The notes under the pieces: model-generated | Told to the model about the DNA's origin: nothing | Seen by the model: the letters and a program-made list of their open reading frames with translations, nothing else | Database searches by the model: none | Virus record (IMG/VR): IMGVR_UViG_3300037418_002142 | Location: 4,183 to 68,182 of that record | DNA: 64,000 nucleotides | From: a virus | Lineage: Duplodnaviria > Caudoviricetes | Strand: one strand, 5' to 3' | Translations under genes and position numbers: made by a program | In this document: positions 7,990 through 50,585 of the stretch, piece by piece | Numbering within the stretch: the stretch's first letter is position 1 | Layout: each line of letters starts with the position of its first letter

Positions 7990-8445
7990 ATGGCGGCCAA
8001 GGTAGACGTGCCGGGCATCGGCGGTCGCAAGGAAATAAGAATTAGAGCTGAGGATGGCCGCGACCGTGGCAAGATGTTCTTAATAAGGGAATGGGATGCG
8101 GCACGCGCAGAGCGCTGGGCGCTGCGCGTGCTGTTCGGGCTGGGCAAGGGCGGCGTGGAGTTGCCGCCAGAAATACTACAGCTCGGTGCGATGGGTATCT
8201 TCTACGCGGCGGGGTCGCAGGCACTGCGCATCCCGTCGCGCCTCGCGCTGCGACTCGCCGATGAACTTATGGAATGTGTAGAGCGCGTTGAAACAAAGAC
8301 CGTGCGTGCACTCGTGCCGGAAGATATCGAGGAAGTGTCGACGCGCATCAAGCTCAAAAAGGAAGTCCTAAAACTGACGTACGGTTTTTTTGTACCCGCC
8401 GCTCCCCAGACTTCGGCAACGGAGAGCGGCCCAAAAACACCCTAA
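7990..8445 (+). CDS. Tail assembly chaperone
   Basis: GRDRGKMFLIREWDA..AERWALR; between tube and tape measure; T7 run near the 3' end. Confidence 0.8.
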   Translation: MAAKVDVPGIGGRKEIRIRAEDGRDRGKMFLIREWDAARAERWALRVLFGLGKGGVELPPEILQLGAMGIFYAAGSQALRIPSRLALRLADELMECVERVETKTVRALVPEDIEEVSTRIKLKKEVLKLTYGFFVPAAPQTSATESGPKTP

Positions 8446-8618
8446 GGACAGTGAACGTGACGCCGGTTATGTCTGCCGTCATAGAGTCGCAGTATGCCAC
8501 CAAGCACGAGCTGGAAACAGTGTATGGGCTGGAAGGCATGTACGACTTGTTTGAAGTGTGCGCTGTAGCCGGCTATAACGAGTACCAAGCATCTAAGCAC
8601 GCCGCTAAAGGAGTGTGA
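8385..8618 (+). CDS. -1 frameshift extension of tail assembly chaperone (gpGT-like)
   Basis: Slippery T TTT TTT at 8385-8391; the -1 frame is open to TGA at 8616-8618 and encodes ATKHELETVYGLEGMYDLFEV; absent from the ORF track. Confidence 0.75.
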   Translation, partial: FFCTRRSPDFGNGERPKNTLRTVNVTPVMSAVIESQYATKHELETVYGLEGMYDLFEVCAVAGYNEYQASKHAAKGV

Positions 8619-8621
8619 TCC

Positions 8622-10400
8622 GTGCCGAATATCATAGACAGTCTATTTCTCGAACTCGGCATTGATACTTCCAAGTTTAGTGCGGATCAAAAGCGCGCGC
8701 TGACTAAGATCGCCGAGTTCGAGTCGCAAAGCAAGAAAGCTGCGAAAGGTGCCAGGAACGCAATCAAGACAGTTGGTGAAGCATTCCGTGATATCGCCGA
8801 CGACAGCCGCGTAGGAGTAGGGGCGCACCGGCTGGATAATCTTGCGTTGAAACTGCGCAATCTTGGAAAGAGCGCGCAAGTGGCCGGCGGGGTAGGCACT
8901 CCCCTAGGGGCGATGGTGGGCGGGCTTGGCGCGCTGCTGAGCCCTGCCGCGCTTGGAGTGGCGGCCATTGGGTTGCTGGGCAAAGCGACGTGGGATCTGA
9001 ACGAAAAGATGACGGCGACCAACGCTACCATCTATCGCAACGCTAGACTCGCCAACATAAGCGGCAAAGCCATGTGGGCTTGGGGAGAGGCGGCGCGTAC
9101 CGTTGGTGGAAATCCTGCCGCCGTGCAGTCTGGTATCGCTGGGCTGCAAACGTCCATACTGGGAGGCATGATTGGCGCCGGCATGCCTACTTCGCAGCTC
9201 ATTGGGTTGGCTCGTCTCGGTGTGAAGTGGAATGCTCGCACTGGCGTTGACATTAAGAGCCTGTTCGAGCGCGTGCACGATATGGGCAAGGCGCAGGGCT
9301 GGGCGCGCACCTGGGCATTGGTGAGCAGCTATGGTCTAATGAATCAGGACGAGTTCAACCTCGCCATGACTAAGGGGGGCGGAGCTGCGGCAGTAGCTTA
9401 CGCACGGAGAGCGGCGCCGCAGAATTTCAACGATATACTGCGACGCTCATTAGAATCGCAGTCGCTTCTCGGCAAGATGGATATTCAGAAGGCTGCGTTG
9501 GCTGAGCGCGCCTATGGCGGCATACAGAAGCCTATGCAGACGTTGGTTGGTCTAATCACCAATCTGCTGGCGGTTACGAACACACTGCTTGGTTGGACTA
9601 TCAAGATCGCCGGGTGGGTCGGGGGCATTGCTGAACGCTTCGGTATCAAGCCTATAGCGGAGGCCGCCGGCGCCATCGAGAAATGGCTGCTGGGCAAATC
9701 TCCATCCGCCTTGGAAGGTGGCGTCCCGGTTAGCGGTAAGCTACCTACTGATTTCAACACGCGACAGGCGATGGCTATGCAGGTGCTGATGGCGCGCGGC
9801 TTATCGCGTAACGACGCGGCGGCCGTCGTAGGCAACTTATCGCAGGAATCAAGCCTCCGCCCAACCGTCACGAATGATAACGGCGCGCACATGGGTCTCG
9901 GCCAATGGGATAAGACTCGGCAAGCCGTGTTTGCCAAAGTGTTCGGCTACAGGATGGGCTCCGATAAGGTACCGGAACGTAAACAATTCTTGGATGAAGT
10001 GCTGTTCGCCAGAATGGAGCTGGCCACGTCGCATCGCGCCGCTATGGCCAAGATGGCGGCAGCGGCCGATCTGTTGAGCAAGACGCGCGCGTTCCAGGAC
10101 TTCGATGAAATGCCCGGTGCCAACGATACTTCGTTTGGCCGTCGCCTGCTGTATGCTGAACAAGCGTACGAGAACGGGTATGCCTACGCGCAAGCGATGG
10201 CAGCGTACAATCGACGCCACGGTGTCATCAATCGCAATGTGACGAACCACACCAAGATCGGCGACGTGCATGTGCATACGCCGACCACCGACCCGGTGTC
10301 GCACGCGGCAGCGGTACGCAAAGGTATATCGTCGCAGCCGCTGCTTGACCCCACCGCGCAAAACACCGTAGCGCTCGCATCGCGAGGCATGGCAGGCTAG
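8622..10400 (+). CDS. Tape measure protein with tail lysozyme (Phage_lysozyme2-like) domain
   Basis: PNIIDSLFLELGID start; helical Ala/Gly-rich body; AAAVVGNLSQESSL...GLGQW lytic motif. Confidence 0.88.
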   Translation: MPNIIDSLFLELGIDTSKFSADQKRALTKIAEFESQSKKAAKGARNAIKTVGEAFRDIADDSRVGVGAHRLDNLALKLRNLGKSAQVAGGVGTPLGAMVGGLGALLSPAALGVAAIGLLGKATWDLNEKMTATNATIYRNARLANISGKAMWAWGEAARTVGGNPAAVQSGIAGLQTSILGGMIGAGMPTSQLIGLARLGVKWNARTGVDIKSLFERVHDMGKAQGWARTWALVSSYGLMNQDEFNLAMTKGGGAAAVAYARRAAPQNFNDILRRSLESQSLLGKMDIQKAALAERAYGGIQKPMQTLVGLITNLLAVTNTLLGWTIKIAGWVGGIAERFGIKPIAEAAGAIEKWLLGKSPSALEGGVPVSGKLPTDFNTRQAMAMQVLMARGLSRNDAAAVVGNLSQESSLRPTVTNDNGAHMGLGQWDKTRQAVFAKVFGYRMGSDKVPERKQFLDEVLFARMELATSHRAAMAKMAAAADLLSKTRAFQDFDEMPGANDTSFGRRLLYAEQAYENGYAYAQAMAAYNRRHGVINRNVTNHTKIGDVHVHTPTTDPVSHAAAVRKGISSQPLLDPTAQNTVALASRGMAG

Positions 10401-10401
10401 C

Positions 10402-11376
10402 ATGAGCTTCCAGTGGACAACAGATGATCAGAATGTAACAGCCGATTCAGGTAACTACACCGCGTCCGGCTCGTACACACCGCAATTTCCAAACGTTCCC
10501 AACTTGCCTGGGGTGCCGCTGCTGAAGCGGATGCAGGTTACGCCGCCACTGATTCCATTGAGCAGCGCGGGCAGCGGTCACGGTTCTGCTGAGTCGCTTG
10601 CAGCGATCGCTACCGCTTCTTTGCTGCCAGGCGGCTCAATTGGCTCCATTGGTGCCGCAGAGGCGGTTGCCAGCGCGATGGGGTTGAAAGGAATCGTAGC
10701 GTTCGGCAATCGCTTGTACGCGGGCATAGAACTTGACAGTTTGACCGCTGGGCCATTGCCGCAGTATTCTATCGTAAACGCGAATTCCCAAGCTTCAAAA
10801 CTAGTACCGGATTCGGTTATCGAGGTTGATTTCGATGCCGATTCTGACATGATGACGCACCCTATTGAGGAGGGCGGGTTCGCAGCGTACAACAGAATGC
10901 AGAACCCAAAGCGCATACGCCTCTTGCTGGCGTGCCGTGGGCAGAATATGTCGCGCGCAGCGTTTCTATCGACGCTCGAGAGCCTTAAAAACGGTACGGA
11001 TCTGTCGACTATTGCTACCCCAGATGCTGCATACTCTAACATGGGGCTCAAGAATTACGGCTACAGGAAGAGCGCAGAAAGGGGCGCGATAACAATTTGG
11101 GCAGATACCGTGTGGCTAGAAGGATTGTCGAGTACCGTTACAATTACGGATGTTGGGGCCGCGCAGCCGCAAGGCGCTGCTACAAGTAACCTCGGCGCGA
11201 TACAACCTCAGACGCCATCGAGTTCGCAGGTCGCTGCTGTTTCTGCACCGCCTACAGTGCCGTCGCCATTGCCGGGCGGGGTCACAATTACGGCGACTCG
11301 TTTGCCAGGAGCGCCGCCTCCTGGCATACCGGCGCCGTTGATTGAAGTCATGCCTGCTTCGGGGTATGCGTTTTGA
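10402..11376 (+). CDS. Baseplate/tail initiator (Dit-like)
   Basis: HPIEEGGFAAYNRMQNP motif; follows tape measure; Pro-rich C-terminus. Confidence 0.7.
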   Translation: MSFQWTTDDQNVTADSGNYTASGSYTPQFPNVPNLPGVPLLKRMQVTPPLIPLSSAGSGHGSAESLAAIATASLLPGGSIGSIGAAEAVASAMGLKGIVAFGNRLYAGIELDSLTAGPLPQYSIVNANSQASKLVPDSVIEVDFDADSDMMTHPIEEGGFAAYNRMQNPKRIRLLLACRGQNMSRAAFLSTLESLKNGTDLSTIATPDAAYSNMGLKNYGYRKSAERGAITIWADTVWLEGLSSTVTITDVGAAQPQGAATSNLGAIQPQTPSSSQVAAVSAPPTVPSPLPGGVTITATRLPGAPPPGIPAPLIEVMPASGYAF

Positions 11377-11693
11377 GCGCGTCATCGTTTTATTTGCAGA
11401 TATTGCCGGTGCAGCCGAAGCCTTCGCAAGTCTTCGATGTGACACTCGGTACTCAAAATTGCGAAATGACGCTGCAACAAATGTCTACAGGGATGTTCAT
11501 GAGTATTTCTGTAGATGGTGTGTCTGTTATTTCCGGCCGCTACTGCGTCGACCGCGTGAACATGGTGCGCCAGAAATATCTAGGGTTTGGCGGAGCGCTA
11601 TACTTTGTAGACACTACGCAACAGGGCAGTGACCCATACTACAGCGGGCTTGGGTCAAGATATCTGTTAGTGTATGAATGGGACCTGCCGTAA
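11373..11693 (+). CDS. Small baseplate protein
   Basis: PSQVFDVTLG, LYFVDT and GLGSRYLLVY motifs. Confidence 0.75.
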   Translation: MSASSFYLQILPVQPKPSQVFDVTLGTQNCEMTLQQMSTGMFMSISVDGVSVISGRYCVDRVNMVRQKYLGFGGALYFVDTTQQGSDPYYSGLGSRYLLVYEWDLP

Positions 11694-12541
11694 TGGCATT
11701 CGTCGGACGTCAATTGCGATTCACGTTTTCTGGCGAGAACGTAGGTACGCTGGTCGCGTCAGGGTTGCGCGCTATAGCCAACATACAGGCATTTGGAGGG
11801 CCGTTGGGGGTTTCGGCGCAGGTGAAGATATTTGGGCTGACAGAAGCGCAGGTCAACAAGTATTCTTCAAGAATTTCCGCCGGCGTCGGCATAGAGCAGT
11901 TCAATCTCTCTATTGAAGCTGGCGATGTCGGCAGCGAATTATCTCAAGTTGTAAACGGCAACATATGGAGGTCGTTCCCAGACTTCCAGGCTGTGCCTGA
12001 ATCGTCGTTCAACGTGACAGTTGCTGGCATCATATACACGGCAACGAACCCGGTAGCCTCGCAGTCCCAGGCTGGTTCGCAAAACGCTGAAGATCTGATC
12101 GCGGCTACTTGCGCCAAAGCAGGGCTGACTCTGCGAAACAATGGCGCTCACGCCGTGCTGCGTAATCAGGCGACGTATGGTTCCGCCATAGACCAGATAG
12201 CGCGCATCGCACGCGCCGCTAGGTTTCAGTGGTCTATAACCGGCGACACGATTTACCTGTGGCCCGCCAACGGACAGCGCGACACTACGGTAATCACTGT
12301 CGGTCCAGATACTAGCCCTCGCATGGTAGGCTACCCCGCGTGGTGGGAAGCCGGCATAATTGTAACATCGGAGTTCAACCAGGAAGTGCAGGTTGGTCGC
12401 CGTATGAAAGTAATTTCTAGCATACCAAAAGCAGCCGGTATCTGGCAGATTGTGCAGGCGCAGCACGACCTTTCCACGATGCTAAGAAACGGTCCGTGGT
12501 TTACTACGGCTGTGCTGGCGCCGGTGGGGTTCACCGCATGA
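11693..12541 (+). CDS. Baseplate hub protein
   Basis: ATG overlaps the upstream TAA; EAGD, GMVGYP-like and N..VQVG motifs. Confidence 0.75.
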   Translation: MAFVGRQLRFTFSGENVGTLVASGLRAIANIQAFGGPLGVSAQVKIFGLTEAQVNKYSSRISAGVGIEQFNLSIEAGDVGSELSQVVNGNIWRSFPDFQAVPESSFNVTVAGIIYTATNPVASQSQAGSQNAEDLIAATCAKAGLTLRNNGAHAVLRNQATYGSAIDQIARIARAARFQWSITGDTIYLWPANGQRDTTVITVGPDTSPRMVGYPAWWEAGIIVTSEFNQEVQVGRRMKVISSIPKAAGIWQIVQAQHDLSTMLRNGPWFTTAVLAPVGFTA

Positions 12542-13218
12542 GTACCGCAGTTCCGAACTACACGCCAGGGGTGTTGGTAGCAGATGCGCTGCGCCAAGAG
12601 CTTCTGGTGCGCGCACTCTTGTCAGATGCGCGCTTCGCTGTGCCTGTTAAGGTTATCGCCGTGCATCCTGGCGATGGTTCGCCGCCTTCCATTGGCACCG
12701 TAGACGTACAGCCGCTCGTGCAGACAGTAGACGGCAGCGGCAATCTATGGGCGATCGATACGGTGTATGGTGCCCGGTTCACTCGCTGGCAATCCGGAGG
12801 TAGCGCGTTTATCGTAGATCCGACCGACGGTGACATTGGCATCGCGCTAGTATGCGATAGGGACATCACTGCCGTTATCGCTTCTGGTGGTCAGTTGAGT
12901 GGCCCAGGCTCGGCGCGCATGAATGACATCTCCGATCTGGTGTATCTTGGGTCCATCATCAGCGCAAAGGCAATCACACAGTACGTGCTGCAGAACGATA
13001 ACGGTATCACCGTATTATCGCCCGGCACTATAACGATACAGGGGGCACAAATAAATTTAAAGGGACCGATCAACGCCAACGGTGCCGAGATAAGCGAAGC
13101 TGGCGAAGTTACGGACGCGGCTGGCAAGGTGCTAGGCACGCATGATCACTTGCCCGGCACTTACGTCGCGCCGAGCGGCGGCGGCCCGGTCACGGGCAAC
13201 TCCGGAGCACCCGTATGA
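12538..13218 (+). CDS. Baseplate central spike (gp138/gpV-like)
   Basis: VDVQPL, DP..GDIG..LVCDRDI and C-terminal HDH iron-binding motif. Confidence 0.85.
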   Translation: MSTAVPNYTPGVLVADALRQELLVRALLSDARFAVPVKVIAVHPGDGSPPSIGTVDVQPLVQTVDGSGNLWAIDTVYGARFTRWQSGGSAFIVDPTDGDIGIALVCDRDITAVIASGGQLSGPGSARMNDISDLVYLGSIISAKAITQYVLQNDNGITVLSPGTITIQGAQINLKGPINANGAEISEAGEVTDAAGKVLGTHDHLPGTYVAPSGGGPVTGNSGAPV

Positions 13219-25904: not shown

Positions 25905-26423
25905 CTAGAAGCTACGACGCGCCAGTATTACGGCGCGGGCTTGACAAACGGCGTCCGACAAGGGGTCGTGCGCCATCAGGTCGTGCCATGCCGACTGTAG
26001 ATCCACATTACGCCGGCGCGCTTCGGCGTAGATCGTGCGGCAACTTCTACTTGCCTTGTAGCTGACAGGGAATGCGTCAGTCCGCATGCGCTGCCACCAA
26101 CTCCGCGTAATAACAACGTCAAAGTCGGGGTCGTTGGCCCAAAGCTCCCCATCGCAATAGTCGACCAGAAAGCCACCCAGCGTTTCAGCCGCGGCGGCTG
26201 CCGTGCAAACGCCGCTCGTCATCGTCTTGCGTGCTTCCTCCGACTGGCCCAGCCACCATGCCACGGTACCAGGGTCAATGTGGCCATGCCAGTCCGATGA
26301 TTTGATAACACATTTCGTTGAAGCGGTAATTCCTTCCTCATTGAAAGCTACGAGCCCGAACGCGGTAACGCACGCATCAGGCCGCGTGCTCAAAGTCTCG
26401 ATATCCAACATCACAGATTTCAC
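25905..26423 (-). CDS. 3'-5' exonuclease (DEDD, Rv2179c/DUF5051-like)
   Basis: MLDIETLST, TV.WW..Q, W.N...FD, R..RT and H..L.DA..QA motifs. Confidence 0.85.
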   Translation of the reverse strand: MKSVMLDIETLSTRPDACVTAFGLVAFNEEGITASTKCVIKSSDWHGHIDPGTVAWWLGQSEEARKTMTSGVCTAAAAAETLGGFLVDYCDGELWANDPDFDVVITRSWWQRMRTDAFPVSYKASRSCRTIYAEARRRNVDLQSAWHDLMAHDPLSDAVCQARAVILARRSF

Positions 26424-28002: not shown

Positions 28003-29044
28003 GCCGTCGCTCCAGCCATTGCATCGCAGCCAACTTCCAGTCCGATGCCTCGCACGCCAGCAGCTCTTCCTGCGCCGCATTGATGCGCTCGTTGCGGGTG
28101 TTCCATACAGTGCCTACGTTCTTCCAGTGCCGCCACGCTTTCCACAGCGGCAGCGCCACGTCGCGCAGGTACGGCACGTTAAGGCGCAGAGTTATTGGCT
28201 TGCTCTCGCTCGTCATGTCGATGCGCGCGCACGACATGAAGCACGTCAGCTCGTTCAGCCATGCTTGCGGCGAGCTGTCCCACCCTGTCCACAATGGGTA
28301 CGGCCTTACACAGTGCGTGCGATACGGGTCGAAATCGACGTTCGCTTCTTGCAGCCGCTTCCATACCTTGCCGCTCTCGTCGTCCAGATACAAGTGCAGG
28401 CTGTCGCTGAACTGGCGGTACACGCCGACCTCCGCCCCCACCGCGCCGGCCACCCATTCCTGCAGAGTGCTGAACTGTACGGCGTTGGCGCCATACGCAC
28501 CCCACACGGCGTCGTTACTCCGGCACAGCACGCTCATGTTCAGCTTGCCGTCGCGCATCTTCAGGAAGATCAGATCGTTGCACGGCATGTCCCTGGTCTT
28601 GGTGCCAAGATCGCTCAAGCAGTCCCATATCTGCAGGACTACCTGCCGCGTGGCGGGCTCGTGCCGCAGCATGCTGACCGATTTCAGCAACTGATCCATT
28701 GCGAAGAATTTGCGCAGTCGGTACCCATACGGAGCATGAAATCGTTCGCCGTCATCGCTGTATTTCGCGATGTTGCCGTTGAAGAATTTTAGGAACGCCA
28801 CGTCGTCATCGCCGTTCAGAATCCACAACGCTTCGAAGAAGTGGAAGAACGGGTTGGCGTCGCGCGTCGAATCGAACAGCACGCGCTGTACCGGCTTGCG
28901 GTAGTCCGTTATCAGCGGCCCATCGTGTTCCAGCGTGGGCATGCCGCGCGGGCTTACGTTGGGCCAGTATTGCCAGCCGCTGTGGCGTATCAGCCACCAC
29001 AACGCTTCGTTAACATCCTCGACCTGAATAACTCTTGCCGTCAT
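27983..29044 (-). CDS. Thymidylate synthase-fold enzyme, probable dUMP hydroxymethylase
   Basis: RDANPFFHF.EALW.L.G, PYGYRLR, TRQVVLQIWD, DMPCN (catalytic Cys), RSNDAVWGAYGANAVQFS (Asn at the dU-specificity position), SLHLY. Confidence 0.88.
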   Translation of the reverse strand: MTARVIQVEDVNEALWWLIRHSGWQYWPNVSPRGMPTLEHDGPLITDYRKPVQRVLFDSTRDANPFFHFFEALWILNGDDDVAFLKFFNGNIAKYSDDGERFHAPYGYRLRKFFAMDQLLKSVSMLRHEPATRQVVLQIWDCLSDLGTKTRDMPCNDLIFLKMRDGKLNMSVLCRSNDAVWGAYGANAVQFSTLQEWVAGAVGAEVGVYRQFSDSLHLYLDDESGKVWKRLQEANVDFDPYRTHCVRPYPLWTGWDSSPQAWLNELTCFMSCARIDMTSESKPITLRLNVPYLRDVALPLWKAWRHWKNVGTVWNTRNERINAAQEELLACEASDWKLAAMQWLERRRELQTP

Positions 29045-29985
29045 ATGACACCCTCGTTTCGTAACATTTTTTTCACCTTTCGCCGTAGCTCGTCTTTGTA
29101 GTCGCAGCCTCCGAATTCTTCGTGCTGCTCCACGCGTATCTCGTCGCGGTGGCGCAAGCAATAGCGTATGTCAGTGACGTCGCGCACGGCCCATGGGCCG
29201 ACTTCTAGATTGGCGCGGCGTAGCTGTACGCTCGTCGGCTTGTCGAACACCATGGGCAGATGCGCGCTCAGCATCTCGTAGAACCTATTGGCCGGGCTGC
29301 AGAATTCTTTATGAGAACGCCGGTCTTCGATGTACAGCCCGAGACCGTGACGCGCGCACTCTTCTCGCAAATCTATATTGGTGTCAGCTTCTTCGATGGT
29401 GCAGCCACGTCGATAGTAGTTTTCCCACGGGCCGGTGCGCGGCACGTTCAGTGTCACTGCGTACCCGCGCGGGGACCACAGATAACGGTCAAATGCATCT
29501 TTACGATCCTTGCGATAACTGCCATAGTAGAACAGGTCGCCATTGTGCGGCGCGCGCTTCTTCCACGGCAGCGGGGCGTAGGTCAGCGCGTTCCAGTTCA
29601 CGTAGCGGCGACGACCCCATCCTTCGCTGAACTTTGGCGCTTCGCACGTCGACCAGATTTCAATGGGTGGCAACCCGCGCCGATGACGCTTGCGAAACGC
29701 GGCGCGGAATGGGCTGCCGCCTTCACTTGTGAACCGCGGCGGAATAATGGTGTAGTCGTTTTGTACCCAGACGATGCGTTCCGCGCGCACAACCATACGA
29801 GCCAGCAGCGGTAGATGCTTGCAGAACGCGTAGGCGCCGTTGACGATGAACAGCGTGTCAACTACTGGCGCCGCGTCGTACACTATGGGCATGCGGCCCC
29901 ACTTGGCCAGCGCGTGCGCAATGCGATGGCTGGCTATGACGCTATCGTGCGACGGCTTGGCAAAGGTCCAGATGGCGGCGCGCAT
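29041..29985 (-). CDS. T4 beta-glucosyltransferase-like DNA glycosyltransferase (GT-B)
   Basis: Collinear matches to T4 BGT as recalled: DTLFIVNG~DRLIVVNS, WVQNDY~YLFTDI (catalytic Asp), YYGSYRKDR~YGGSFRSGQR, GLYIED~ALIIGD, NRFYEMLS..PMVFD~LRVWETMA..VMLID; ATGA-coupled to the hydroxymethylase. Confidence 0.72.
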   Translation of the reverse strand: MRAAIWTFAKPSHDSVIASHRIAHALAKWGRMPIVYDAAPVVDTLFIVNGAYAFCKHLPLLARMVVRAERIVWVQNDYTIIPPRFTSEGGSPFRAAFRKRHRRGLPPIEIWSTCEAPKFSEGWGRRRYVNWNALTYAPLPWKKRAPHNGDLFYYGSYRKDRKDAFDRYLWSPRGYAVTLNVPRTGPWENYYRRGCTIEEADTNIDLREECARHGLGLYIEDRRSHKEFCSPANRFYEMLSAHLPMVFDKPTSVQLRRANLEVGPWAVRDVTDIRYCLRHRDEIRVEQHEEFGGCDYKDELRRKVKKMLRNEGVI

Positions 29986-29988
29986 TGA

Positions 29989-30351
29989 CTAAACCTTTCC
30001 ATCAGCGCGGCGGCCGGTGTTTGGTACGACTTGCACTGCACGGTCGTCCCACAGCTCGATCATGCCGTAATCCTTCTCGCACACGACCTCAAGCCGGGCT
30101 CCAAGATGCTGCTCGGTCCAGTCCTGTATCGTGTTGCGGATGACTGCTATTTCTGAAGTCGTAGCTCTTCCACTATTCTTAGACACGCGCGCGGTGAACA
30201 CCTTCACCGTTTTGCCTTCAGCAATCCAGGCGCGCACTCGCAACGCCATCGGCAGTATAGGAGCGCCAATATGTAACGCGCTCACCCACCCGCTATACTG
30301 CGCCAGCGTACCGTCCAGGTCTACGCCGATCCAACCATTAGTAGCGTTCAT
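29989..30351 (-). CDS. HAD-superfamily phosphatase-like protein
   Basis: IGVDLDGTLA motif I, FTAR motif II, K...ELWDDRA motif IV. Confidence 0.8.
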   Translation of the reverse strand: MNATNGWIGVDLDGTLAQYSGWVSALHIGAPILPMALRVRAWIAEGKTVKVFTARVSKNSGRATTSEIAVIRNTIQDWTEQHLGARLEVVCEKDYGMIELWDDRAVQVVPNTGRRADGKV

Positions 30352-31096: not shown

Positions 31097-31293
31097 GGCA
31101 ATTTCTGCACCCGTAACGTCTTGCGGCACACGCTCCGCGGTATCTTTATGAGCGCGACGCCAAACTTAGGCTGATACGCTTCGCGGCCGCAAAGCAGGCA
31201 TCGGTATACCGGCACGTCCGTTGCCCAGCCGGTGCCCACCTCTACCGCTGCGTGGATGTCGATTCTGCAAAGCGCGTGCAGAAACTTGCTCAT
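31093..31293 (-). CDS. Small Cys/His protein
   Basis: LCRIDIH...YRCLLCG; ATGA-coupled on both sides. Confidence 0.55.
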   Translation of the reverse strand: MSKFLHALCRIDIHAAVEVGTGWATDVPVYRCLLCGREAYQPKFGVALIKIPRSVCRKTLRVQKLP

Positions 31294-31598
31294 GCCGCTG
31301 TCCTTCGGTTGCCGAACAGTATGTTTGGCACGTTGCCATCCTTGAACCCGCTGCCACGGCACGCGCTGCACTCGCGCTGCGGTTGCACGTCGGGCGGCGG
31401 CCAACTGCTATCCCATTCCGGGTCCTTCGGGCTGACAAAGCCGGTGCAGGCGCCGCACTCGCCGCGAATAACACCGTGTGAGCATTCGTCGTTCCACCAG
31501 TTGGCCACACCGTCGCCCGCGCCTTTGCAGTGCGGACAGCAGGCGGCTTGCAGGGTTATCAGAGCGCGCCCGTAAGCGCTTTTGTGTTCTATAGCCAC
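31290..31598 (-). CDS. DnaJ-type zinc-finger protein
   Basis: CPHCKGAG, CGACTG and CSACRGSG repeats. Confidence 0.65.
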   Translation of the reverse strand: MAIEHKSAYGRALITLQAACCPHCKGAGDGVANWWNDECSHGVIRGECGACTGFVSPKDPEWDSSWPPPDVQPQRECSACRGSGFKDGNVPNILFGNRRTAA

Positions 31599-31759
31599 GG
31601 CAAATCAGCCTCCTCGCATCGAAAGCCGCAGTTGCGGCACTCATACCAAGAACATTCACCAGTCCATGCTTCCTCTTCCCTACGCTCCATGTCGTGGTCG
31701 CACCATAGTCGCTGCCACCACAGTCGGAGCGCGCGCAGCGCAAGCTTCAGTCGTTCCAC
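31589..31759 (-). CDS. Small Cys/His protein (56 aa, below ORF-track cutoff)
   Basis: GTG start; MERLKLALRALRLWWQRLWCDHD...YECRNCG; fills the gap with overlaps at both ends. Confidence 0.5.
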   Translation of the reverse strand: MERLKLALRALRLWWQRLWCDHDMERREEEAWTGECSWYECRNCGFRCEEADLPWL

Positions 31760-32679
31760 GGCAATTCCTCCTGCAACACGGGCCGGTAGATGGAACGTGG
31801 GCGTCCCTCGCCGTTCTTGACGCGCATGTACTTGTCGAACTCACAGAGCGAGTGTTCGATCTCGCGCATCTCGAACGGCCAATCGCACAGAAAGACGTGC
31901 TTGCCCAGCGCGCTTTCGGACGCGATGGCGGGGCGCGCTTCTACGAGCAACTGTCGCATCGCAGCAATGTAATCAGGTTTCTTACCGCTATAGTGACGAT
32001 CACCGGTAAGCAAACGATGTATGCCACGGCGAGCCCCAGGACCAGGATTAGCCCAGCTATTAACATCACGAGCGTGGCTAAGCACGCGAGTATGCCTGAG
32101 ATCACAAGCGATTTCATAGCCAATGAATCCTCCAATGGTGGGGTACGCTTGCAACAGCTCCACGGCCCGCTCCATGCTGGCGTACTTCTTTATCTTGCGG
32201 GTGAGCTTGCGTCGTTCCTTGTGCATGGCCTCCAACGCTTCGCAGATAACCTGTATCTTTGGGTCCGTCCGGCCGGCGTTTGGTATGATATACGCACCCG
32301 TGAATATTTGCTTGCCTTCCTCTTGTCGCTTGGTCAGCAAGTCGATAGCCTTGGCCATGTCCCAGCGGCGCAGCCCGTAGAACAGCGCGTCGTAGGTTTC
32401 AGGCCAGTTGAACAGCCGGAACTGCGCGCACTGGAACAGAATGTCCTCATCTTCGAGATTCCGGCCTTTGTCGAGTAGCGTCACGTAGCGTTTGGTCCAC
32501 TCCTGCGTCACACGATCGAGCTGCCGGTACACGTTGGTGAACTTAAACTCCCGCAGTATCTTGTCCTTGGTCCACGGCCACTTGTCACCGGCCTTGCGAT
32601 TTAAGTAGATGCGATGGCGTTCGTTGATCCACCCCCAGAACGCTTTGATCTGATTCTTCTGCCACTTGAATGATTTCAC
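31747..32679 (-). CDS. aGPT-Pplase1 / 5-hmdU DNA kinase-family helical protein
   Basis: F..WINERH.IY..R....PWT.D.IL..FKFTNVYRQLDRVT, FRLFNW..T, FTGAYI, IGGFIGYEIACDL, NPGPGA.RG, EIEHSLCEFDKY.R motifs. Confidence 0.85.
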   Translation of the reverse strand: MKSFKWQKNQIKAFWGWINERHRIYLNRKAGDKWPWTKDKILREFKFTNVYRQLDRVTQEWTKRYVTLLDKGRNLEDEDILFQCAQFRLFNWPETYDALFYGLRRWDMAKAIDLLTKRQEEGKQIFTGAYIIPNAGRTDPKIQVICEALEAMHKERRKLTRKIKKYASMERAVELLQAYPTIGGFIGYEIACDLRHTRVLSHARDVNSWANPGPGARRGIHRLLTGDRHYSGKKPDYIAAMRQLLVEARPAIASESALGKHVFLCDWPFEMREIEHSLCEFDKYMRVKNGEGRPRSIYRPVLQEELPWND

Positions 32680-35135: not shown

Positions 35136-35429
35136 TCAGTAATCCGACTTCACTTCCTGTGATTCCGGGTATTCCGCCACACCCTCCTCTATGATGCGCA
35201 CCGCGACGGCGATCACTTGATAGGCTTCGCGCTTGATCTTGTCGCGGCGTTGCTGTACTGGGGCCGGCGGGTCCTTGCGTTCGATAGCGAATCGCAGCTC
35301 GATAATCGCGGTGGCCAGCTCGCCCACTTCCTCCATCAGGGCCGGCAGCAGGTTGTCGTTACGCGGAAACTTTTCGCGAGCGTTGCGAAGTTCCACTCCT
35401 ATCTGATAAAGCGTGTCGGAATCTAGCAT
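35136..35429 (-). CDS. MazG-like NTP pyrophosphohydrolase
   Basis: ALMEEVGELA....E..QV.AVA.R all-alpha NTP-PPase motif. Confidence 0.75.
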   Translation of the reverse strand: MLDSDTLYQIGVELRNAREKFPRNDNLLPALMEEVGELATAIIELRFAIERKDPPAPVQQRRDKIKREAYQVIAVAVRIIEEGVAEYPESQEVKSDY

Positions 35430-47916: not shown

Positions 47917-48843
47917 TCATGCCACGTGCTCCTGGTGCGCTATCGCAGCGTGCGCTTCCACTTCCTTCCAGGCGCGCTCATACTCAGCCAGCATCTGCTC
48001 CTTGCTCAAGCAATTGCGCGTGTGCAGCACCAACTCTCCACCAGCGCGGCGCTCCTCCAGCGTGGCGGGGAGCTGTTCGTGGCCACCGGGGTAGTAGCCA
48101 TAGTGTTCCAACGTCCTGCCATCCAACAGCGTGTGAAACGACCAGAAGCCGCACGCTCGCCAAAAGCCGGCTGTTACCATGCTGCACAAGCGATCCAGCA
48201 CCAACGGGTCCTGCGTGCGTTTTATGCACCATGCGCTCGTACTCTTGTTGTTGCTACCGATCGGCGCATTGCGCCATACGCTCATTGCACTGCCGCACAC
48301 CCACACCTCAATCACCTTACCGGCACGGGCCAAGCGGTCGCACAGCGCAACGGCCAGCGCAGCACGCCACAAGGCGGCTTCCTGCGTCATGTGCCACGGG
48401 GTGCCAAGATCCAGTGCCATCGTCACGCGCTTCGTGCTCACCGTATGTACGTCTTCACGCACGGGGCGCTCCCACGCCCGACCGATATCGCCGTTCCACA
48501 CTCTGGTCATATCCAGTGTGTCGCCGTGATCATCCCGGTGACGCTTGCGGCGACGCAGCGCAGCGCGACTTGGAAAGTTAGGAATCTCGAGTTCCAGATC
48601 GGCAGTTAGTCTTTCCAGCTTCCCGCGCATCTCCGGCCAGCCGTACTCCACCTTGTTGAATACTTCGGGCACGCCGCCAGCGCACCCGTACCAATCTATA
48701 TTACCGCGCCAGCCGCCAGCGCTCATGCGCTCCCCAGCCTTGCGCGCTTCCGCTATGTCGGCGACAAACTGCTCGAAGGTTTCCCATTCCATACTGAGCT
48801 GCCCGTGCGCCACCGTGGCGCGCATGTTGCGTGTAGTTTTCAT
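47917..48843 (-). CDS. VWA/CobT-like partner of the AAA ATPase
   Basis: Coupled downstream of a MoxR AAA gene; G..LD..R...G; WRAALA..L.D.L...G..IEVW. Confidence 0.6.
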   Translation of the reverse strand: MKTTRNMRATVAHGQLSMEWETFEQFVADIAEARKAGERMSAGGWRGNIDWYGCAGGVPEVFNKVEYGWPEMRGKLERLTADLELEIPNFPSRAALRRRKRHRDDHGDTLDMTRVWNGDIGRAWERPVREDVHTVSTKRVTMALDLGTPWHMTQEAALWRAALAVALCDRLARAGKVIEVWVCGSAMSVWRNAPIGSNNKSTSAWCIKRTQDPLVLDRLCSMVTAGFWRACGFWSFHTLLDGRTLEHYGYYPGGHEQLPATLEERRAGGELVLHTRNCLSKEQMLAEYERAWKEVEAHAAIAHQEHVA

Positions 48844-50585
48844 GCTACTAACCTGCGCTCTGCATCGGTCCAACCGGTGAAGTACGATCGCTCCCATTCA
48901 GGCTGCGCCCAGTTGTAGCGCTCCGTCATGATGCCCAGGTCCTTGATCACGCGGGTCGACATGATGCGGCGCAGCTTGTTCTCGCGAATCTTGTCGCGAA
49001 TACCCCACGCCCACTCGCACAGTTCGCCGGTACCCAGTTCCTCTTCGACCTCCTTGCAATAATCCATGGTGATCATGCCGACCTTGAACCGGTCCAGCGT
49101 CGCGGCGTCCAGTTGGTTGCGACCAACGTACATTGCGTCAGCGCCGTTGCCGTAAGTGTTAGCCGCGGCGATCAGCACAAAATCCTTGTGCTTCTTTACC
49201 ACCGGGTTATCGTAACGTTGGTCCACTGTGTACGACGAGTTAGCGATTGCCTTGTTGATATAGGTGAACAGATTAGGGTCGCCAGCGTCGACCTCGTCTA
49301 GCAGCATGCCGCCGCCTTTTTCGTACCGAATCATGAATGGCGACGGCACATGAACGAATGCGCCGTTCTTGCCGATGGGCAGCAGCCGGCCGTTGAACAC
49401 GCTCTCGGACATGCCCTCACTGCAAGACTGGTCGCTGTAGTCCAAGCCCAGCGCTTCGGCTACCTTTTCGGCGAGGAATGTCTTGCCGCAACCGGCGGGG
49501 CCGACCAGCAGAATAGGAATGCGCGCACTGGCCAACTCTACCATCCGCTGAAACTCCGGTGGTAGCACGCCCTTGATCTTCCTAACCTTGGCGCCATCCT
49601 TGATCACGATGGGAGCGCGCTTATCAGCCGCTTCCGCGATCGCCCGCTTGGCGAAGTCCACCATCTTCGGCATGTGCTTCTCGACACCCTTGTCGAGCGC
49701 CTCAATCGCCTTGGTCACGGCTTCATCGCCGGCTTTGTCCAGGTCGCCGCTGTATTGGTTGAGTATGTTGCTCAGCAACTCGACGTAGCGCTTTTCCTGG
49801 TCGGTCTCGGCCGGCTTGCTGCCGTCCTTCTGCAGGCAAATCAACTCATACCAGCGTTGGGCCGCGCCAAGGTCGCGCAGTGCCGCTTCCTTTAGCAGGT
49901 TGGCGCGGTCAGCCGGTGCGGCGGCCTTAATGGCACCAAAGCAGCCCAGCGCATCCGCCAGCATGTACTGATGATACTTGTGGATCTGACTAAAGTCAGC
50001 GTCCTGCACCTTAGGTGGCAGGAAGCGGTTGCGTGGGATTGCCGCGCCAGAGCGGCGCGTTCTCGTAAAGCCCATGTTAGTCTCCTCCTCAGAGAGTGAA
50101 TGGGTTGCAGTTAAAATGTCTCGAGCAGTTTCTTCATTGGTTTTGGTGGGAAAGGTTTGTGCTTCCTCTTCTAAATCGTCGAGTATGATCGCGTCTAACT
50201 TCTTGCCGTCTAGCTTAGCCGGTAGGGAACTGTCGAATGTTTGCATGTACATACGCGCCATCACTTCGGCTGACGGCATGTACTTCTTCGCTAGCTCCCA
50301 TAAATCCATTATCTGTGGCGGATCCTTGTAGTCAGTATCTTCGACCGTGAAGTCCAAAATTACTGTTTCCATGCCCTGACTGGCAATGCTCACGCTGGCA
50401 ATGCTCACGTCCTTTACAGTCAGGCCGCCAAGGTAGCCCTTGCACGCAGTGGCCAACTCAGACTTTATGGCCTCCAACTTCAGCATGGCGGTCAGATGCG
50501 GCGATTGCGAAATGTGCCTTATATTCTGCGCGACATGCGCGTTTTCCGCTATCGGCAGCGCGATCTGTACGTTGCGCGTCGTCAT
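48840..50585 (-). CDS. MoxR/CobS-like AAA+ ATPase; probable main start at 50075
   Basis: LLVGPAGCGKT Walker A, LLDEVDA Walker B, AANTYG.G...YVGRNQLDAATLDRF, STR. Confidence 0.9.
   Translation of the reverse strand: MTTRNVQIALPIAENAHVAQNIRHISQSPHLTAMLKLEAIKSELATACKGYLGGLTVKDVSIASVSIASQGMETVILDFTVEDTDYKDPPQIMDLWELAKKYMPSAEVMARMYMQTFDSSLPAKLDGKKLDAIILDDLEEEAQTFPTKTNEETARDILTATHSLSEEETNMGFTRTRRSGAAIPRNRFLPPKVQDADFSQIHKYHQYMLADALGCFGAIKAAAPADRANLLKEAALRDLGAAQRWYELICLQKDGSKPAETDQEKRYVELLSNILNQYSGDLDKAGDEAVTKAIEALDKGVEKHMPKMVDFAKRAIAEAADKRAPIVIKDGAKVRKIKGVLPPEFQRMVELASARIPILLVGPAGCGKTFLAEKVAEALGLDYSDQSCSEGMSESVFNGRLLPIGKNGAFVHVPSPFMIRYEKGGGMLLDEVDAGDPNLFTYINKAIANSSYTVDQRYDNPVVKKHKDFVLIAAANTYGNGADAMYVGRNQLDAATLDRFKVGMITMDYCKEVEEELGTGELCEWAWGIRDKIRENKLRRIMSTRVIKDLGIMTERYNWAQPEWERSYFTGWTDAERRLVA

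Follow-up and report, generated by a model that had tools for sequence, protein, structure and literature searches.

The window, by which we mean the whole 64,000-nucleotide stretch of viral DNA analysed here, spans positions 4183-68182 of the 68,182-bp IMG/VR record IMGVR_UViG_3300037418_002142, which carries direct terminal repeats and is rated 100% complete. It contains a single tightly packed block of modification genes on the minus strand, in which the gene of a candidate DNA glycosyltransferase, P0001, adjoins that of a thymidylate synthase (TS) homologue. Both genes and their surroundings were examined as a possible pathway to glycosylated 5-hydroxymethyluracil (hmU). The two central genes are as follows.

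29041..29985, minus strand: P0001, a putative GT-B glycosyltransferase resembling T4 beta-glucosyltransferase (BGT), 314 amino acids (aa); assigned by its predicted fold and by aligned T4 BGT residues
27983..29044, minus strand: predicted TS-superfamily hydroxymethylase of deoxyuridine monophosphate (dUMP), 353 aa; assigned by PF00303, phrog_5131 and a signature in ThyA numbering

The open reading frame (ORF) of P0001 is intact, starts with ATG and is identical in sequence to the public gene call. The preceding gene ends three bases before this start. At the other end, the TGA stop of P0001 (29043-29041) overlaps the ATG of the TS homologue (29044-29042) as ATGA, within ATATGA, an overlap that the sequence-only reading of this DNA had stated, and the two genes are translationally coupled. 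T4 likewise has its gene 42 adjoining b-gt.

P0001 has 371 relatives in a collection clustered at 90% identity, and when clustered at 50% identity its family falls into at least 440 groups. Nearly all of these sequences are metagenomic, the matches in cultured phages amounting to three records at ~24% identity. A family alignment of 38 sequences has a mean column identity of 48%, and 30 of its 314 columns are invariant. The conserved blocks are VWVQNDYTIIPP, SPFRxAFR, YVNWN, YYGSYRxxR and GLGLYIEDxxSHxEFHSPANRFYEML, in which the invariant SPFR and NWN motifs of the N-terminal domain are peculiar to this family.

The AlphaFold2 model of P0001, which was built with this alignment, has a pLDDT of 92.7 and a pTM of 0.89. 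In a Foldseek comparison with the PDB, ranks 1-6 were all occupied by T4 BGT (E 1.2e-10 to 9e-8, TM 0.63-0.70), and Gtf3, SenB and T4 AGT ranked below it. Superposition with VIA-align gave Z-scores of 21.3-22.1 for the T4 BGT entries, with a best root mean square deviation of 3.3 Å over 291 residues. The next group, in which T4 AGT and SenB were tied, had a Z-score of 17.4, about 5 units lower. The predicted fold is a two-Rossmann GT-B that is nearer to T4 BGT than to other GT-B enzymes.

The T4 b-gt gene was also aligned to the P0001 family profile by local and global hhalign. The local alignment covers the C-terminal domain with an E of ~1e-3 and the global one extends over 275 columns. The hhalign probability of 12-22% is weak when taken alone, but it is backed by the independent match in structure (Foldseek E 1e-10, VIA Z 22.1). 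The alignments pair D77 of P0001 with D100 of T4 BGT (in the global alignment), G155 with G188, S156 with S189, R158 with R191, R161 with R195, R234 with R269 and E237 with E272. Six of these seven residues (D77, G155, R158, R161, R234 and E237) fall on invariant columns of the family alignment, whereas S156 does not; by our own arithmetic, the chance that six positions would all do so is ~0.096^6, or ~1e-6. D77 is the putative catalytic base equivalent to Asp100, and G155, S156, R158, R161, R234 and E237 are putative nucleotide-sugar binding residues. P0001 thus appears, from the model and the alignments, to share the fold of T4 BGT and to keep both the base needed for inverting catalysis and the residues that bind uridine diphosphate (UDP). 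All of this agrees with the sequence-only reading, which had proposed a GT-B enzyme similar to T4 BGT. The motifs that it quoted, VQNDY (D77), GSYRKDR (R158, R161) and NRFYEM (R234, E237), are present, the GT-B fold is found in the model with T4 BGT as its top match, and the collinear equivalents that it named for Asp100, Arg191/Arg195 and Arg269/Glu272 are exactly the pairs returned by hhalign, all of them invariant in the family.

The TS homologue matches PF00303 with an E of 4e-16 and phrog_5131 with an E of 2e-98, and it scores far under the NCBIfam thymidylate synthase cut-offs. In E. coli ThyA numbering, it has Cys146, Arg166, Ser167, Asp169 and Asn177, and an Asp replaces Leu143. Asn177 confers specificity for dUMP and Asp177 for deoxycytidine monophosphate (dCMP), a change of Leu143 to Asp or Glu accompanies hydroxymethylation instead of methylation, and a change of Asp169 to Asn is a mark of 5-hydroxylases (PMC13326640). 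By these criteria, because it has Asn177 and the Leu143 to Asp change and keeps Asp169, the protein reads as a dUMP-type, hydroxymethylating enzyme. The same substrate had been deduced earlier from the GAYGAN motif, whose Asn was equated with TS Asn177, and the alignment with ThyA bears this out. The protein shows 39% identity to gp58 of phage M6 along its entire length, and the motif RSNDxxWGAYGANAV is common to both. M6 DNA carries hmU-derived thymidine hypermodifications (PMC5889632, PMC8989533).

The other protein that accompanies P0001 across related phages belongs to the HMUDK_hel family.

31747..32679, minus strand: stand-alone HMUDK_hel protein, 310 aa; homologue of M6 gp55, with no P-loop kinase domain

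Homologues of P0001 were located in 61 loci, 58 from IMG/VR and 3 on further contigs, and 30 of these loci extend for at least 4 kb on both sides. Among the 30, a TS homologue is present in 27, an HMUDK_hel protein in 28 and both in 27, and a recognisable hmU kinase is found in 3. The family of amino-acid:DNA transferases (ADDT) was found in none of 60 related loci. The glycosyltransferase, the hydroxymethylase and HMUDK_hel therefore form a conserved trio, which the sequence-only reading had not noticed. Asn177 is present in 44 of the 46 linked TS homologues. The two Asp177 (dCMP-type) homologues occur in loci L040 and L059, both of which are without HMUDK_hel and have distant homologues of the glycosyltransferase. 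This pattern fits a glycosyltransferase that acts on whichever hydroxymethylpyrimidine the neighbouring enzyme makes; judging by these sequences, the glycosyltransferase family apparently spans both pyrimidines and HMUDK_hel tracks the uracil type.

Further genes recur around the glycosyltransferase in these loci. A radical-SAM/SPASM gene lies directly downstream of it in ~29 loci, about half (for example L043:10833-11822 and L006:10128-11141, among loci L005-L064), often with a second, shorter paralogue, and an S-adenosylmethionine (SAM) methyltransferase gene lies just upstream of it in 11. Such genes point to a more complex chemistry of the sugar or of the base in the phages concerned. In locus L006, which belongs to a dUMP-hydroxymethylase phage, a TAGT gene (PF20691; 8981-9733) directly follows the BGT-like gene. 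TAGT is the GT-A family to which the base J glucosyltransferase of kinetoplastids belongs, and L006 thus has two types of DNA glycosyltransferase side by side. The trio is also found in a cultured phage, the Escherichia phage vB_EcoM_IME392, where positions 8001-12616 encode a glycosyltransferase (24% identical to P0001), HMUDK_hel, an AAA_28 protein, a TS homologue with the Asn and an HD-domain protein. IME392 belongs to a polymerase group known for thymine-modified genomes (PMC12686479). As an E. coli myophage in culture, it could serve as a tractable model of the module.

The HMUDK_hel protein of the window matches Pfam PF18723 across the full profile (E 5.5e-62) and is 34% identical to M6 gp55. 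The Pfam name would make it an hmU kinase. We rejected this assignment, as the protein is of the M6 gp55 type and has no P-loop, and the kinase of M6 is gp54 (PF18748); a comparison of M6 gp54 with P0262 found no similarity. The model of the HMUDK_hel protein (pLDDT 87) is all-helical, with a helix-hairpin-helix glycosylase-like fold. The best structural match is gp46 of PaMx11, a 5-phosphomethyl-deoxyuridine (5-PmdU) glycinyltransferase (Z 11.5), followed by helix-hairpin-helix DNA glycosylases; for a helical protein, a likeness to gp46 at this Z-score is suggestive rather than decisive. Nothing significant was found when the HMUDK_hel profile was compared with PDB sequences. The protein has an invariant Cys279-Glu280, which aligns weakly with the region of the catalytic Cys (Cys247) of M6 gp51 (PMC11472151), and it is read here as a Cys-bearing relative of the amino-acid transferases that act on 5-PmdU. 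Predicted binding between P0001 and HMUDK_hel scored 0.00, which is below the mark and counts neither for nor against binding.

Four genes lie between those of HMUDK_hel and P0001, both in this phage and in its 79%-identical relative. They are listed here together with the gene that follows the TS homologue.

29989..30351, minus strand: HAD-like phosphatase, 120 aa, with a DLDGT motif; directly upstream of P0001
30356..31096, minus strand: P0267, 246 aa, a sulfotransferase-like protein; motifs GSGRCGTSS and VRDPRHV
31290..31598, minus strand: small Cys-rich protein, 102 aa; its three motifs of the CxxCxGxG type recall the zinc-finger repeat of DnaJ
Within the same four-gene interval: an ORF of 66 aa
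27433..28002, minus strand: HD-domain, YfbR-like 5'-deoxynucleotidase, 189 aa in the public gene call; homologue of M6 gp59

The two motifs of P0267, GxGRxGT(T/S) and R(D/N/H)PxxV in general form, resemble the two loops that bind 3'-phosphoadenosine-5'-phosphosulfate (PAPS). The Pfam match of this protein to Sulfotransfer_4 is weak (E 0.014), ESM Atlas placed it with viral sulfotransferase clusters at 0.98, and its family profile gave only chance P-loop-type matches to PDB sequences. Homologues of P0267 occur in 3 of the 61 related loci (L022, L055 and L067), which are the closest relatives only, and in each they directly adjoin the glycosyltransferase. The HD-domain 5'-deoxynucleotidase probably shapes the deoxynucleoside triphosphate pool. 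The HAD-like protein matches a polynucleotide kinase/phosphatase PHROG (E 4e-7) and could be a deoxynucleoside monophosphate nucleotidase or a 3'-phosphatase. The small Cys-rich protein is kept in the closest relative. Two ORFs in this interval (31166-31510 and 31408-31743, minus strand) appear to be spurious GC-rich frames, and the public gene calls were preferred to them. Elsewhere in the window, a MazG-like pyrophosphohydrolase is weakly matched (E 0.006) at 35136-35429 on the minus strand, and an Rv2179c-like 3'-5' exonuclease is encoded at 25905-26423, also on the minus strand; the latter recurs close to the modification block in related contigs. In the complete genome, searches at E<=1 found neither the 5-hydroxymethyldeoxyuridine DNA kinase PF18748, with either the family model or M6 gp54 as query, nor ADDT (PF18724, formerly aGPT-Pplase2). 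The complete genome was likewise without matches to TAGT/JGT (PF20691) and to Tet_JBP (PF12851). The absence of the latter agrees with the sequence-only reading, which had proposed a route that has no need of a JBP/TET oxidase.

The analysis shows the predicted fold, the conservation of residues for catalysis and donor binding, the coupling of the two genes in an operon, the signature of a dUMP hydroxymethylase and a neighbourhood that is conserved across loci; the acceptor (DNA), the sugar, the anomeric outcome and any later tailoring are inferred. In our judgement, P0001 is probably an inverting DNA glycosyltransferase of the BGT lineage that acts on hmU and yields beta-glycosyloxymethyluracil. 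The pathway would begin with the co-translated TS homologue, which would convert dUMP to 5-hydroxymethyl-dUMP. Cellular or phage kinases would then produce 5-hydroxymethyldeoxyuridine triphosphate, which the family-A polymerase of the phage would insert instead of T. Competing nucleotides would be depleted by the HD nucleotidase and perhaps also by the proteins of HAD-like and MazG-like type. P0001 would flip hmU out of the replicated DNA, and Asp77 would deprotonate the 5-CH2OH group for its attack on C1 of a nucleoside diphosphate hexose. This donor, in the simplest case UDP-glucose of the host, would be held by Arg158, Arg161, Arg234 and Glu237, and UDP would be displaced with inversion. 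The resulting beta-glycosyloxymethyluracil would be base J provided that glucose is the sugar and that no further group is attached later. The likely benefit is that phage DNA would be shielded from restriction enzymes and from hmU-DNA glycosylases. A precedent for the acceptor exists in T4 BGT itself, which is able to glucosylate hmU in oligonucleotides but, within a duplex, does so only opposite G (PMC4111573).

Glycosyl-hmU is the best-supported product, and to name exact base J, with glucose and no additions, is a guess. It is doubtful that glucose is the sugar and that the base then undergoes no further change, because the donor cannot be read from sequence and because the cassette contains further enzymes. 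We would be just as tentative about a more specific and far-reaching version, in which the P0001 family consists of hmU:A-specific beta-glucosyltransferases that convert most thymine to base J, HMUDK_hel is a second enzyme on the same base and, in this phage, the sulfotransferase-like protein might add a sulfate. If it were true, base J would be made here before replication and without an oxidase, independently of the kinetoplastid JBP and JGT proteins. The sulfate would be a group so far not known on DNA bases, and there would be no precedent for a sulfated DNA base or for sulfate on the sugar of one.

Several observations weigh against glycosyl-hmU as the product of P0001. Searches of Pfam, PHROG, NCBIfam and PDB sequences (the last by phmmer) assigned the protein to no family, the best direct match being a chance-level CBM6 (E 0.49), and phmmer found no match to the T4 BGT chains. 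Because of these results and of the low hhalign probability, P0001 should be treated as a separate sequence family. As its similarity to T4 BGT is below the level of detection, homology is argued from the structure prediction and a weak profile alignment. Furthermore, HMUDK_hel, whose catalytic Cys appears to be intact, hints that the same base undergoes a second reaction, as do the sulfotransferase-like neighbour in this phage and, at homologous loci, the radical-SAM/SPASM, methyltransferase or TAGT neighbours. With these additional enzymes, the acceptor or the final product may be something other than plain hmU or base J, and a more elaborate end product is quite possible.

P0001 might then be one step in a longer thymidine hypermodification, so that the virion base is not base J. 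HMUDK_hel could first install or exchange a group at the 5-methylene, possibly after activation by the sulfotransferase-like protein in place of the missing kinase, and P0001 could then glycosylate the appended group; or glycosyl-hmU could be tailored afterwards, for instance by O-sulfation. We regard this, the main alternative, as unlikely. In its favour, HMUDK_hel is linked to the glycosyltransferase as tightly as the TS homologue is, its model is nearest to a glycinyltransferase, and its invariant Cys279 aligns, if weakly, with a catalytic Cys region. The P0267 gene, with both PAPS-loop-like motifs, sits within the cassette, and homologous loci have radical-SAM/SPASM, methyltransferase or TAGT genes adjoining the glycosyltransferase. 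Thymidines bearing oligosaccharides and phosphate are found in SP-15, YerA41 and Carin-5 (PMC12686479), and IME392 has its glycosyltransferase, HMUDK_hel, TS and HD genes in matching order. The case is weakened by M6, in which the HMUDK_hel homologue gp55 is dispensable for base transfer in vitro (PMC8989533), and by the absence from the complete genome of the kinase and the ADDT that would provide a leaving group. P0267, for its part, is of a type too rare (3 of 61 loci) to explain a general trio, and its assignment as a sulfotransferase is weak.

The remaining alternatives concern the reaction of P0001 itself. It could be a GT-B enzyme with an acceptor other than DNA, such as a host envelope glycan, a protein or a small molecule, its linkage to the modification genes reflecting shared early expression. 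SenB, Gtf3 and BshA, the next structural matches, do use small-molecule or protein acceptors, and ~65% of virome glycosyltransferase contigs have no base-modification neighbour (Pyle et al., bioRxiv 10.1101/2023.12.21.572611). Such an acceptor is nevertheless improbable for P0001, as its clear best match is a DNA glycosyltransferase and another one, T4 AGT, ties with SenB for second place, and as its gene belongs, in 27 of the 30 loci, to a conserved and translationally coupled set of genes for DNA precursors and DNA modification. TagF-type polymerases are GT-B-like as well, and the scaffold could in principle serve a non-glycosyl transfer onto hmU, for example of a TagF-like polyol or sugar phosphate in phosphodiester linkage. 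The arginines that bind diphosphate would persist in such an enzyme, and phosphate is present in the thymidine modifications of the SP-15 type (PMC12686479). Against this, the equivalents of Asp100 and Glu272 are invariant, as in a classical inverting glycosyltransferase, and no TagF-type structure is found among the top structural matches, which leaves the idea with very little probability. We give hardly any credence to an action on 5-hydroxymethylcytosine (5hmC) after the manner of T4 BGT. Distant family members do adjoin dCMP-type TS homologues in L040 and L059, but the TS homologue next to P0001 carries Asn177 and is grouped with M6 gp58. There is no evident homologue of a dCMP hydroxymethylase, the T4 gp42 query having been run against the related loci only, and the genome has no pair of a cytosine methyltransferase and a TET enzyme.

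Up to 2019, no phage had been reported to contain glucosylated hmU (PMC6449724), and our full-text literature searches found no later report of one. If P0001 produces glycosyl-hmU as proposed, this could be the first pathway in a phage that leads to a nucleobase resembling base J. The novelty lies in the placement of a BGT-lineage enzyme on the hmU branch, in the trio with HMUDK_hel and in genomes that are without the kinase and ADDT; it is not a categorically new system. The pairing of virome GT-B enzymes with ThyS homologues has already been reported in bulk (bioRxiv 10.1101/2023.12.21.572611). Should P0001 glycosylate hmU paired with A, base J-type DNA would have arisen independently in viruses by a different route, and thymidine hypermodification, of which amino-acid and polyamine branches are known, would gain a sugar branch. 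An hmU:A-specific enzyme would also be a reagent for mapping 5hmU, since T4 BGT labels hmU only in mismatches. In addition, the linkage of HMUDK_hel to the glycosyltransferase in kinase-less genomes bears on the role of M6 gp55.

The genome is that of an uncultured soil phage, whose sequence was found in two rhizosphere metagenome runs only. When the region was compared by megablast with 50,697 phage records, no match was found. The polymerase of the phage shares no more than 37% identity with its counterparts in Stenotrophomonas and Pseudoxanthomonas siphophages, and the terminase is ~40% identical to Brucella phage terminases. By these comparisons, the phage has no close cultured relative. 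Its replication block includes an AAA_5 (MoxR/dynein-type) ATPase followed by a DUF7192 protein (47917-50585, minus strand).

With respect to known systems, P0001 is closest to T4 BGT (PDB 1J39, 1QKJ and 1BGT), a member of CAZy family GT63. The two have in common the predicted two-Rossmann GT-B fold over the whole length, the collinear catalytic Asp, the Gly-Ser-x-Arg...Arg and Arg-x-x-Glu donor-binding residues, and a gene that adjoins a phage pyrimidine hydroxymethylase. However, they are only ~14-15% identical, P0001 has 314 aa and T4 BGT 351 aa, and the partner of P0001 is predicted to make hydroxymethyl-dUMP whereas that of T4 BGT makes hydroxymethyl-dCMP. Since T4 BGT takes hmU in a duplex only when it is mispaired with G (PMC4111573), recognition of hmU:A by P0001 would be a new specificity.

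The surrounding block resembles the thymidine hypermodification clusters of M6, PaMx11, ViI and PhiW-14 (Lee et al. 2018, 2021) in its backbone order and with identities of 30-40%. The order common with M6 is HMUDK_hel (gp55), a variable cassette, the hydroxymethylase (gp58), the HD protein (gp59) and a gp61 homologue. Unlike those clusters, it lacks the PF18748 kinase and the PF18724 ADDT, and the glycosyltransferase fills the variable cassette. The predicted class of product, beta-glycosylated 5-hydroxymethyluracil in DNA, is that of the kinetoplastid base J pathway (JBP1/2, JGT). The route would be different, as hmU would be made from dUMP before replication, whereas kinetoplastids oxidise T that is already in DNA. 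A Tet_JBP protein is absent from the phage, and the transferase is a BGT-like GT-B and not a GT-A of the TAGT/JGT type. Furthermore, kinetoplastid base J replaces ~1% of T, whereas genome-wide substitution would be expected in the phage.

The virome GT-B enzymes of Pyle et al. 2024 (GT53, GT66 and GT94) similarly have a BGT-like predicted fold and an Asp equivalent to D100, and a ThyS homologue is close by in ~28% of the GT-B contigs (bioRxiv 10.1101/2023.12.21.572611). The enzymes characterised in that study differ in using 5hmC that is produced by a methyltransferase and TET; its ThyS-linked set was counted without being divided into dU and dC types or related to HMUDK_hel. Finally, glycosylated thymidine derivatives, of the kind predicted here, are also found in SP-15, YerA41 and Carin-5. 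The bases of these phages have a C5 alkyl linker, phosphate and several sugars, and the phages encode sugar-nucleotide enzymes; nothing of this is seen in the present 68-kb genome.

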